Positions 280 to 47,091 of a stretch of DNA of 64,000 bases are shown here, piece after piece (position 1 is the stretch's first letter; each line of letters opens with the position of its first letter). This DNA comes from Gemmatimonadota bacterium (lineage in GTDB: Bacteria > Gemmatimonadota > Gemmatimonadetes > Gemmatimonadales > GWC2-71-9). Location: NCBI GenBank assembly GCA_036679645.1, contig JAZDCY010000011.1, positions 1-64,000 of the forward strand, read 5' to 3'. The translations under genes and the position numbers were made by a program. The notes under the pieces are model-generated. The model had not been told where the DNA came from. It saw nothing but the letters and a program-made list of their open reading frames with translations, and did no database searches.

Positions 280-525
280 GTGCAAGAAGGCAACCAGAGT
301 TTCGTTGATGTCTATCATCCTGCCAGCCACGAGGAGTTAGCGGTCCTTCGATTGGCGCTGGACGCTGCCGCCATCCACCATTTCGTGAAGAACGAATACG
401 CCACGCTCGGATCGCGTGGCGCGATTGGCTCGGATCAGCTGGCTATCATGGTGGAAGCAGCTCGCGCTGACGAGGCCGGGCATCTGATTCGCAGCGCATT
501 GGGCGTCGGGCGGACGCCTCAATGA
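280..525 (+). CDS. Cassette ORF, small DUF2007-like (putative signal-transducing) protein
   Basis: 81 aa, pattern ELAVLRLALDAAAIHHFVKNE...IMVEAARADEA. Bracketed by GTTAGACGGCGGC (251-263) and its complement GCCGCCGTCTAAC (526-538). Confidence 0.65.
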   Translation: MQEGNQSFVDVYHPASHEELAVLRLALDAAAIHHFVKNEYATLGSRGAIGSDQLAIMVEAARADEAGHLIRSALGVGRTPQ

Positions 526-539
526 GCCGCCGTCTAACA

Positions 540-825
540 CCATTAAAAAGTGCCCTGTCAAGTGGACGCAGTATCCCTAGCGGCGAGCGTGCTCGCCGCT
601 TTCTTGCTTTCGCAGCTGTTCAACTTCCCTGAGCGCGACGTGGCGTCTGCCGGTGGTATCGCGTGGAGCGTCACGAGCAGTGGCGTCCAAACACCATTAT
701 GGGCTTGCCGATTCGCTACGGTTGCGCGCGAGTCGTCGCCTCGCACCGAGGCGATCCCAGATACGTTCCTGGCACAACGCCGGGCTTCCCAATCAAGCGC
801 GTGAGCCCGCGTGCTGCGGACTCAG
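540..825 (-). ncRNA. Putative IS1111 seekRNA/bridge-RNA-encoding non-coding region
   Basis: ~285 bp non-coding region downstream of the transposase, the IS1111 arrangement. Contains CAAGCGC (794-800; core plus target flank) and CACCATTA (692-699; core plus IS end). RNA ends are unknown. Confidence 0.55.
579..610 (+). terminator. Intrinsic-terminator-like hairpin inside the IS
   Basis: AGCGGCGAG-CGTG-CTCGCCGCT followed by TTCTTGCTTT. Confidence 0.5.
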
Positions 826-1790
826 TTAGGCGGGTGGGCTTGCCCGGCGTGGCCACTGCGCGAGTTTCCGATGACTCAGCGCTCGACCCTTGAACTGCCC
901 ATTGAAGTCCTCGTGCGCCGTGAGGACGTGATAGACGATGCGCGCCAGCTCGAGCGCGACCAACGTGCGCGCGATCCGGATCGGTTTCTTGCGGGCCTTG
1001 GCTTTGAAGAAAGCACGGATCTCCGGGTTGTACTGGACGGCGCGGATGCCGGCGTGACTGAACGCGAGCTTGAGGTAGCGATTGCCCGCCTTCGAGCCCG
1101 AGCGATGCCGCGTGCGCCCGGCGGAGTTGTCGGCGCCGGGAACGAGGCGGCAGTGGGAGAAGAACTGTTTGGCCGAGGGGAAGCGTTCGATGCCATCGAT
1201 CTCGGTGTAGATGGTAAACGCGTTGACCTTGCCGATGCCGGGAATCCAGAGCAGGCGTTGGATGTCGTCATTCGGGATGAGGTGGGGATGGAGAGCGCGT
1301 TCTATAGTCGTGATCTGATCCGCGAGCAGCGCGATCTGCGCTTCATGACAGGCAGCCTGCAGGCGGTAGGCCTCGTCCAGCTCGGCGAGGCATGCGACGT
1401 TGAACTTCTCGAGCAGGCGTTCGATGCTGTTCTTTGCACTGGCACACTTCTCGACCAGGCGCAGGCGGGGATGAGATCAGCCCGGAGGAGCAGTGCGAGG
1501 ACATCGGAGTCGACCTTGTCGGTTTTGACCTTGGCAGCAGAAATGGCCTTGAGCCGGGTGGCATGCGCTAGTCGGAGGTCGACGTGCAGGTCACCGAGGA
1601 GATCCGCTAGCCAGTACCAGCTGCCGGTGGATTCGACGACCGCCCGGTGCGGACCGGTGAATTGGGCGAAGTAGCGCTGGAGTTGGAGTGGCACGTTGGG
1701 GACTCGCTCCTGTTTGACGACCGCGCCGTCGGGCCCGTAGGTTGTGATGTAGCAATCGCGTTTGTGCTGGTCGATGCCGGAATAGAACAT
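826..1790 (-). pseudogene. IS110-family (DEDD) transposase with internal deletion/frameshift near 1468
   Basis: MFYSGIDQHK...VVEST...KTDKVDS...LLRADLIP, then continues in another frame as RLRLVEK...IPGIGKVNA...RFPSAKQFFSHCRLVPGADNSAG...GNRYLK...RRASPPA* (stop at 826). Confidence 0.85.
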
Positions 1791-1875
1791 GGGGTGCCCT
1801 CTTGGTGGTAACGGGTCATGAGACGTGAGACCTCTTATCGAGACGTTACTCCTCGAGGGCACTTCTTGGAAACAT

Positions 1876-2040
1876 CAAGCGCTTGCAGTTGTCGGCCGCG
1901 TTCGATCGTTATGGATGTCGTTGGCTTGTGCGCCGGTGGGGGATAGTGCACGTTCGGCAGAAGTTGATTATGCGCAGGGCAAGTACCGGCGCCTCGCCCC
2001 TCAGCGAGTTGCCCACAACTCAAGCGCAGGGACGTTAGGC
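1876..2040 (+). repeat. attC site (remainder after IS insertion; R'' GTCTAAC at 532-538)
   Basis: L'' GCGCTTGCAGTTG pairs with L' CAACTCAAGCGC with one extrahelical base. R' GTTAGGC at 2034-2040. Reconstituted length 171 bp. Confidence 0.9.
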
Positions 2041-2911: not shown

Positions 2912-3032
2912 GCATAACCCGCGCTTGCAGCAGTCGAGCCCCTGACGCTTCGGCCGCCGCCGGATTTCTTTGGGCATTGGATCGGCGGTGGCCTCAGCAG
3001 GGACTCGCAGCTCAAACGCAGGGACGTTAGGC
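2912..3032 (+). repeat. attC site (121 bp)
   Basis: R''-like GCATAAC (2912-2918; CGCGGCATAAC complements GTTAGGCCGCG at 2034), L'' GCGCTTGCAGC, L' GCAGCTCAAACGC, R' GTTAGGC 3026-3032. Confidence 0.85.
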
Positions 3033-5427: not shown

Positions 5428-5500
5428 AGCTAACCAATCGCTGCACACGGGCGTGGATTCCGCTACGTTTCATCCACGCCTGTAAGCTCAAGCACTAGAC
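5428..5500 (+). repeat. Short attC site with degenerate R'
   Basis: AGCTAAC...GGCGTGGAT/ATCCACGCC hairpin...CTCAAGC-ACTAGAC. Confidence 0.6.
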
Positions 5501-5569
5501 GGCTTCATTGCTCAGCTCCCCGTGGCGGTAAGCGGGTCGTATGTTCACTGGAAAAAGAGCCGACTCAGA

Positions 5570-6580
5570 ATGAAGGCGGTTGTCCAAGAGAAGTATGGTT
5601 CTCCTGATGACCTAGAACTCCGCGAAGTCGACAAGCCGGCGGTCGGCGACGATGAAGTCCTGGTGCGAGTACGCGCGGCTTCGGTCCATCCGGATGTCTG
5701 GCATGTCGTGAGCGGGCGGCCCTATGTCCTTCGCCTGATGGGAGCGGGGCTCTTCAAACCCAAGAACCCGATCCCTGGCACCGACATGGCCGGCATCGTC
5801 GAGTCGGTCGGCAAAGGCGTGACACGGTTTCACCAGGGTGATGAGGTGTTCGGCGAAACCATCCACGTTCTGCAATGGACAAACGGCGGCGCATTTGCCG
5901 AATACGTAGCTGTTCGACGAGACTTGCTGGCGCTGAAACCTGACAACATCACGTTCGAACAGGCCGCCTCCGTCCCCTCATCCGGATTCATCACCCTGCA
6001 GAATCTCCGTGGCGCGAGCGAGGTACTCCCAGGCAAAAAGGTGTTAATCAACGGCGCCGGGGGCGGTGTGGGTTCCCTCGCCTTACAGATCTCGAAGGCC
6101 TACGGCGCGCACGTGACCGCCGTGGATACCACGAGCAAGCTGAGCATGCTCCGCTCATTAGGGGCAGATGATGTCATCGATTACACCCAGGAGGATTTCA
6201 CTCGAAGTGGCGTTCGCTACGATCTCATTTTCGATATTCCGGGGAACCGCCCATTCTCGACATTCATGGGGGCGCTAGAACCTGACGGGAGATACGTACC
6301 CATCGGGCACGGTAATTTTGGAGCGTCGGGCAGACATGTGTTCGGACTCATTCCCCATTTCCTAAGACTCATGTTCCTTTCACGCTTCGTGAAGCAACTG
6401 CGGGGTCCGAGCGTCCCGTTACCCAACAAGAAAGAGGTAATGGCCATCCTCACGGAACTGCTCGAAGCCGGGAAGATCACACCAGTCATCGACAGTACAT
6501 ATCCCCTGAGTGAGGCCCGCGAGGCTTTCCGGCACATGATCGAGGACGAACTCCAAGGGAAAGTGATCATCACCGCGTGA
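5570..6580 (+). CDS. Zinc-independent MDR-family NAD(P)H oxidoreductase (quinone-reductase/RTN4I1-like)
   Basis: MKAVVQEKYGSPD..., GTDMAG, VLINGAGGGVG, VIDYT, GKVII. Confidence 0.9.
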   Translation: MKAVVQEKYGSPDDLELREVDKPAVGDDEVLVRVRAASVHPDVWHVVSGRPYVLRLMGAGLFKPKNPIPGTDMAGIVESVGKGVTRFHQGDEVFGETIHVLQWTNGGAFAEYVAVRRDLLALKPDNITFEQAASVPSSGFITLQNLRGASEVLPGKKVLINGAGGGVGSLALQISKAYGAHVTAVDTTSKLSMLRSLGADDVIDYTQEDFTRSGVRYDLIFDIPGNRPFSTFMGALEPDGRYVPIGHGNFGASGRHVFGLIPHFLRLMFLSRFVKQLRGPSVPLPNKKEVMAILTELLEAGKITPVIDSTYPLSEAREAFRHMIEDELQGKVIITA

Positions 6581-6626
6581 TAGGTGGACGCGCAGAGTAT
6601 CGATATACAAGACGGCAGGGGTCCTC

Positions 6627-6981
6627 TTGAGCGGTACCGCACGTTTCAAGGAGCCGATCGCCTGTACGCAGACGGAGCACAGGGAGTTCGCGCGTCTTAT
6701 TCGCCAAGGCTTTGATGGCTCCGGCGGACGCACGCGTCAGCCCTGCAGATTACACGCTCGAACTTGGCTGGGTCTTCGTCACTCCTGCCCACCGAGCGAA
6801 CCGGATTGCCGAGAGCTTGTGCCGGCAGCTCTTGGCGCGCGTGCCTGCGTCCTGTGTTTTTGCCACGACCCGCCCCAACAACAGCTCCATGATTAGGATC
6901 CTTCTCGCCCTCGGCTTTGAGCGAGTCGGGAAGCCATATCCACGCCGCAACGAAGAACTTGTGCTATTCTTGCAGTCCTAG
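6627..6981 (+). pseudogene. GNAT acetyltransferase split by deletion/frameshift near 6722
   Basis: N-part ...EFARLIRQGFDGS and C-part ADYTLELGWVFVTPAHRANRIA...FATTRPNNSSMIRILLALGF are in different frames. Confidence 0.65.
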
Positions 6982-45596: not shown

Positions 45597-45677
45597 GTCA
45601 AGCACCCCGCTCCCTCGGTAACGTAGCCGTACAGACACGTTCTGCGAAGCCAGTGCCGCTTCGCGTATATTCCGGAA

Positions 45678-47091
<1,414 letters not shown>

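Follow-up and report, generated by a model that had tools for sequence, protein, structure and literature searches.

The window analysed here is a stretch of 64,000 nucleotides from a Gemmatimonadota contig (JAZDCY010000011.1). Its first 7700 positions are a decaying cassette array, without an integrase in that stretch, in which whole, half and eroded attC-like sites lie at about 251, 2912–3032, 4157, 4898, 5428, 7126 and 7654. One cassette, carrying a DUF2007 gene (280–525, plus strand), has had its attC interrupted. The R'' box of this site, GTCTAAC (532–538, plus strand), is unbroken at the junction with the right end of an IS110-family insertion sequence (540–1877, minus strand; 1338 bp including one CA core), and the remainder of the attC-like site follows the left end (1878–2040, plus strand, with R' at 2034–2040). 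The 2-nt CA core is present at both junctions, at 538–539 and 1876–1877, and target duplication is absent. These junctions, which span 532–550 and 1868–1888, and the CA core had been proposed in the original prediction and were found as described there. Subterminal inverted repeats lie at 545–556 and 1856–1867, the left one 8 nt inside the core, and match at 11 of 12 positions.

A -35 box, TTGACA (561–556, minus strand), is located 17 nt from a -10-like hexamer that exists only when the element is a circle. A sigma-70 scan found no promoter in the linear element, and no circle joint was present among the contigs listed. One RNA sequencing run contains a related contig spanning 539–795, although contigs cannot show transcription. 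A second full-length copy is found in the same genome (G000:C6, about 5462–6784), with a 12/12 match between its repeats and a frameshift caused by a different deletion. Beyond these two, a search with the model built here found no further full-length copies in the host genome. Fragments of the element lie at C6:11954–12000, C39:15371–15574 and C42:67018–67244 of genome G000, and are of the types left end only, right end plus donor loop, and internal piece within a cassette.

The reconstructed empty target is attC-like in its fold and resembles the host's own empty sites. The rejoined site, at 171 nt longer than usual, folds like an attC: its R boxes pair, its L boxes have bulges and the spacer at the centre is left unpaired. 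Its R'' and R' boxes with AAC and GTT are present, and the fold resembles those of empty sites on contigs C96 and C86. The 5-nt R''–L'' spacer is usual and recurs in the empty sites at C96:2977, 3720 and 4437; the L'–R' spacer, of 9 nt, is atypical. On C86, 600 bp separate a split intI gene from a site of the same attC family. Both integron integrase genes of the genome are split by frameshifts (G000:C86:51824–52734 and C33:1464–2106). In three other genomes, the distance between a relative and an integrase match that passes the family cut-off is 1 to 17 kb. Known sites were missed in two automatic attC censuses, whose output was noisy, and no genome-wide count is drawn from them. At G000:C96:1214 an unoccupied attC (L004) has three additional bases behind R'', identical to the left-end junction of the element. 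These bases may be the footprint of an imprecise loss through 4-nt microhomology, or may reflect a collapsed assembly.

The element contains a DEDD recombinase pseudogene (826–1790, minus strand) with Pfam domains PF01548 and PF02371. The catalytic residues D7, E53, D91 and D94 and the equivalent of S241 are all present. Compared with an intact relative that is 97% identical (P0001), and with the C6 copy, the gene has a 55-bp deletion near 1467, which shifts the frame and removes residues 109–126 of the intact relative. The original prediction made no mention of this break and spoke merely of a repaired transposase. The intact relative scores 178 bits against NF033542 (cut-off 140), and the only PDB sequence matches of the transposase are IS621 and ISCro4. 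No relatives of P0133, another relative, were found in viral contigs.

Downstream of the gene, and extending into it, is a predicted bridge-type RNA with a core of about 177 nt (680–856; this and all RNA features below are on the minus strand), bounded by an outer helix of 856–853 with 683–680. There is no Rfam match inside the element; the sole match in the window is a TPP riboswitch at 45672–45772. An alignment of 63 sequences contains a 9-pair stem that closes the target loop, with its 5' arm in the last codons of the gene (836–850, pairing with 791–777). This first helix has changes on both sides in 8 of its 9 pairs and 96.5% of cells paired; for the whole structure 89.5% of cells are paired and covariation is 0.438 versus 0.165. 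The region had been described as non-coding, which holds for most of it, lying as it does downstream of the gene, but not for the start of the conserved structure, about 30 nt within the gene. When the 540–830 fragment is folded alone it does no better than shuffled sequences (z -0.55), because it lacks the 5' arm. A TGCC:GGCA helix considered as the closure of the donor region is unsupported as aligned, and the window's donor loop lies 4.2 kcal/mol above the minimum-energy fold.

The two loops are of like design, each with 10 nt, a hairpin or branched insert, and a further 10 nt. In the target loop the predicted first guide, CCCGCCTAAC (825–834), resembles the attC top strand as far as the core and is identical to the window's own site at 8 of 10 positions. 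The second target guide with the core is at 794–801, and is followed by a predicted handshake dinucleotide, AT (792–793), the same two letters with which the left end begins. In the donor loop the predicted first guide (760–769) agrees with the circle junction at 5 of 10 positions exactly and at 2 more by wobble. The second donor guide with the core is at 692–699 and is followed by a further predicted handshake, TT (690–691), the dinucleotide with which the target resumes beyond the core. The original prediction had noted the two second guides, as GCGCTTG at 800–794 followed by ATTGGG and as TAATGGTG at 699–692 followed by TTTGGA, and both are located on the strand and at the positions it gave. 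In the consensus fold the guides are unpaired, so the matches do not fall in stems. The original prediction had not placed the opposite-strand guides with confidence; these are predicted, with weaker support, at 834–825 and 769–760, and the first of them was missed on account of its overlap with the stop and the codons before it.

Are such matches guides, or could they be copies or coincidences, arising from shared ancestry or duplicated end sequence and with no role in pairing? In 20,000 dinucleotide shuffles of the 288-nt region the 7-mer appeared on either strand in 3062 (15%), and is therefore not significant by itself; the target flank is, moreover, palindromic. The 8-mer was present in 38 shuffles and the two together in 6. 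With the next two bases added, the 9-mer was found in 33/20,000 and the 10-mer in 2/20,000.

The question can be addressed through relatives, for which we took the best 80 of 501 and the best 80 of 534 confirmed candidates, plus the genome's own two copies. In the resulting 162 parsed loci, the four guide segments were identified in 146, 148, 144 and 133, the right end in 138 and the left end in 148. Ends were placed without reference to the guides, the right as TTGAC plus 17 nt plus the core and the left via the inverted repeat; truncated or deleted loci and those with other letters after the donor guide were dropped from the parse, and no conclusion depends on the unpublished genome G016. 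Flanks were compared in 132 complete elements forming 62 clusters. On average the second target guide agrees with its own flank at 6.47 of 10 positions, versus 4.70 when shuffled (maximum 5.26; 57 clusters), and the second donor guide matches at 7.63, versus 5.86 (maximum 6.33; 54 clusters). In crossed controls the gain is at the core alone, where the first base (T or G) changes jointly in both guides. In 16 parsed elements, among them several Ignavibacteria loci such as L078, L095 and L104, the left flank has a TG core and the right end a GG core, and the first base of the core can apparently be mismatched there.

Changes on a tree tell the same two guides apart from copies. Using 25 non-overlapping pairs from a 51-row tree, the second target guide has 14 concordant changes, none opposite, 4 with the flank unchanged and 5 other, and the second donor guide has 8 concordant, none opposite, 1 with the flank unchanged and no other. 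One donor position matches in 51/51 with 6 joint changes. The crossed controls have no concordant changes. An unbiased column scan of 72 clusters, including the sister clade, links the flanks to RNA columns 61–66 and 163–168, and left-end positions 3, 6 and 7 to columns 98, 95 and 94, each in register. The concordant tree-pair changes, with none opposite and none in the crossed controls, refute chance or copying as the source of the matches, and we give that explanation practically no credence. The sequence and its comparison with relatives establish the ends, the CA core and the stems, and also that the second target and second donor guides change in register with their DNA; the expected covariation of 794–800 with insertion flanks holds among the relatives. 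Relatives whose flanks differ carry different guides, which supports the proposal that the RNA is programmed for this attC family.

The first guides, whose positions follow from symmetry and register, behave differently. For the first target guide the match to the flank does not rise above shuffled controls (6.83 versus 6.49, maximum 6.91), and the tree pairs have 4 concordant changes, 1 opposite and 28 in the flank only. The first donor guide is marginal (6.73 versus 6.36, maximum 6.71); 22 of its 27 changes on the tree are unmatched by the end and 2 of 27 are concordant. The handshake columns are nearly invariant, AA replacing AT in 26/132 elements and at least 6 loci outside the parse having TG or TA, and support for them therefore consists of the pattern, which most loci follow and which is as described for IS621 in the available text of PMC11208158, and of one covarying case, L201.

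The constancy of the first target guide bears on how the target is chosen. It could be picked mainly as a folded, single-stranded attC hairpin, as is done by group IIC-attC introns, retroelements of unrelated chemistry that recognise the folded strand, with the RNA match doing no more than setting the register. In 133/138 parsed relatives the right flank begins with TTA, which is complementary to the attC triplet region, and it varies freely beyond this while the first guide stays constant, as the 28 flank-only changes attest, and nearly all relatives are in attC-like sites. Two relatives, L201 and L170, are nevertheless in sites unlike attC, with guides changed to match, and within one host the choice of spacer tracks the guide. 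In that host, a single Rhodothermales genome, the guide-matched spacer is found at 14/14 occupied junctions versus 6/15 exactly matching empty sites. We therefore consider recognition mainly through the hairpin improbable. A Rhodothermales genome (G062) has at least 13 near-identical copies, with unoccupied matching sites remaining, and would be well suited to supply an intact element that was active recently.

The weakness of the first donor guide raises a different question, whether the donor loop is used at all. Under the seekRNA model a single short target-loop RNA is functional, the protein recognises the ends via the repeats, and the donor-like loop either serves as structure or can be dispensed with. 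According to the accessible text of PMC11187229, an 82-nt RNA is enough for movement of ISEc11. The subterminal repeats are kept in the present family, with 7–12 matches out of 12 in 127 loci and 11–12 in 51 of these, and the weakly supported first donor guide has a partner inside the RNA. No segment covaries better than the second donor guide, however, and covariation of this kind would not persist in a dispensable loop; the seekRNA model is in our judgement a highly improbable account of this family.

The internal partner is a conserved segment, GATAC in the window (656–660) and GATAY generally, about 30 nt beyond the donor loop and complementary to the 3' end of the first donor guide. At its sole variable position, agreement is 0.82 across 51 clusters versus 0.36 when shuffled, and on the tree the two sides change 5 and 8 times, 9 jointly, and share 4 of the changes. 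The 3' end of the guide covaries better with the internal segment than with the DNA end. The helix between them has a probability above 0.5 in 43/72 folds and of 0.06 in the window, and its pairing is broken in seven rows of one subclade. One reading is that it represents a closed state of the long transcript.

A further feature of the RNA is its overlap with the coding sequence. The stop codon TAA (828–826) lies within the first target guide, at the bases that read the AAC triplet of attC, and the stop is the guide's TAA in 140/146 parsed loci and 61/62 clusters. No guide containing a stop codon is described in the accessible text of PMC11187229 and its preprint, PMC11208158, PMC13626964, PMC3001079, PMC13604230, PMC11616780, PMC9229058, PMC12444791, PMC5034289, PMC11322120, PMC11208160, 10.1101/2025.05.14.653916 or 10.64898/2026.10.21.760802, although their figures and closed supplements may contain one. 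The idea that the overlap is obligatory was rejected, since 6/146 parsed loci differ and several sister-clade elements stop in another frame. Three relatives, single cases each, are informative. In L201 the target has TGAC for TAAC, the stop has changed from TAA to TGA, and the donor handshake has changed from TT to TC like the flank. L170 is at the start of a short tandem repeat that is not an attC; its guide has no TAA and its gene stops upstream. Its donor-loop insert is very short. In L271 the stop is in another frame, and GAAC is found in both guide and target.

The overlap probably arose through extension of the gene into the RNA. The first stem of the RNA and the first target guide occupy the last 10 codons, and in a structural model of P0133 the last 20 residues have pLDDT below 50; the protein tail therefore probably tolerates what the RNA requires. 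The overlap might act as a control, in which a transcript serves as message or as guide but never as both at the same time, and in which GATAY keeps the donor guide shut until the RNA is trimmed. A translating ribosome would have to unfold the target loop, whose beginning lies in the last codons and which includes the stop. We think a control function unlikely. If it were true, leaving the AAC of attC would need the stop to be changed or moved, as with the TGA of L201, the upstream stop of L170 and the other frame of L271, and this constraint would help to lock the lineage onto integrons across several phyla.

How does this element compare with known systems? As described in the available text of the sources, it resembles the IS1111-attC elements ISKpn4, ISPst6, ISPa21 and ISPa25 in having a downstream non-coding region and subterminal repeats, in its insertion near the 5' end of attC and against the array direction, and in the order of its guides, the top-strand match (in their convention) being first. 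Of the IS1111 definition of Siddiquee and Hall, the long downstream non-coding region and subterminal repeats of 11–13 bp are found here; the extensions beyond the repeats are 8 and 5 nt plus the core, where the accessible text of the definition has 7 (or 6) and 3. The core is 5–7 nt nearer to R'' than the insertion point of ISKpn4 as given in Table 1 of PMC13604230. The transposase is 21–28% identical to six named core IS1111 members, which form their own long branch, in a quick tree that has long branches, carries no AU test and contains no IS1111-attC member. Published tables group ISKpn4, ISPst6, ISPa21 and ISPa25 with one another, give them IS1111-type motifs and separate them from the ISGsu4 cluster, and in Durrant's table the IS1111-attC members and this lineage fall in different clusters. 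The label IS1111-type in the original prediction thus fits the layout but not the transposase, which is outside both core IS1111 and the IS1111-attC group. With its core also 5–7 nt away from the ISKpn4 point, the element is, judged by sequence, not a member of IS1111-attC, although its predicted mode of action is like that of IS1111-attC and IS621.

The nearest named elements by motif, read by eye rather than aligned, are ISGsu4, ISGsu5, ISShfr7 and ISShwo5; among the papers searched, one mentions any of them, in a different context. On plasmids, elements sharing this N-terminal motif (about 30% identical to P0001) have left ends with TG then AT and a first guide ending in CTAAC. In two whose ends are both visible the sequence goes on with TTA, and one rejoined site folds as an attC. 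In ISGsu4-like elements the guide is about 30 nt after the stop, and the non-coding region, of about 460 nt, is not detected by the model built here. The best plasmid matches are less than 34% identical. ISGsu4-like plasmid elements of marine Gammaproteobacteria (L277, L285–L288) are at the same attC base and have several TAAC modules within a longer non-coding region. That attC R'' targeting is unique to the present clade was rejected, as ISGsu4-like plasmid elements do likewise, and targeting of the R'' edge is therefore older than this clade. The clade-typical motifs DNSAG, DNSGG, DQHK and QWPR are absent from the ISfinder proteins of the published supplement, and ISKpn2, at the locus examined, is not in an attC. 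According to the available text of PMC3001079, group IIC-attC introns use the same attC end and orientation.

With IS621 and ISCro4, as far as these are described in the accessible text, the element shares two predicted loops, four predicted guide segments with a 2-nt core in common, putative handshakes that match the recombinant junctions, a predicted junction promoter, and DEDD residues with a serine. Unlike in those two, the RNA is downstream of the gene, overlaps it and is mirror-imaged relative to it, and there are a large branched insert in the donor loop, a downstream internal partner and 12-bp repeats. The RNAs of ISEc11 and ISPa11 are reported, in the text available, to start 39–86 nt after the stop, whereas here the structure starts within the gene.

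Taken together, the locus holds a frameshifted IS110-family copy at the R'' edge of an attC-like site, and the region 3' of its gene very likely encodes a two-loop bridge RNA for the target and the circle junction. The mechanism can be outlined by analogy with the systems in the accessible text of PMC11208160, PMC11208158, PMC13626964 and PMC11187229. As in IS621, excision to a circle would make a promoter (TTGAC, 17 nt, GATRTT) from which gene and RNA would be transcribed together. Each loop would then read both strands, through a first guide, a hairpin, and a second guide with the core and two handshake bases. The order of the guides on the attC top strand is that of IS621, which suggests that the top strand would be exchanged first, and handshakes that pair with recombinant junctions only would favour insertion over excision. 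The TAA that would read the invariant AAC of attC would also terminate the protein. As long as the element stayed in place the attC would be inactive, and the present copy could move only with an enzyme supplied in trans.

The principle of RNA guiding dates from 2024, and the copy studied here is dead. What it provides is a fully readable predicted bridge RNA of the downstream layout, with both loops and handshake positions; published work still resolves the donor loop of that layout poorly. Since the predicted RNA starts within the gene, a survey restricted to intergenic sequence would not see the first stem and guide, and the RNA would be broken in cis if the end of the protein were tagged or its codons optimised. 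For integrons, it means that attC has a second group of parasites, a widespread branch of RNA-guided recombinases whose hosts include Gemmatimonadota, Rhodothermota, Ignavibacteriota, Bacteroidota and Fidelibacterota and which use a base other than that of the clinical IS1111-attC elements.
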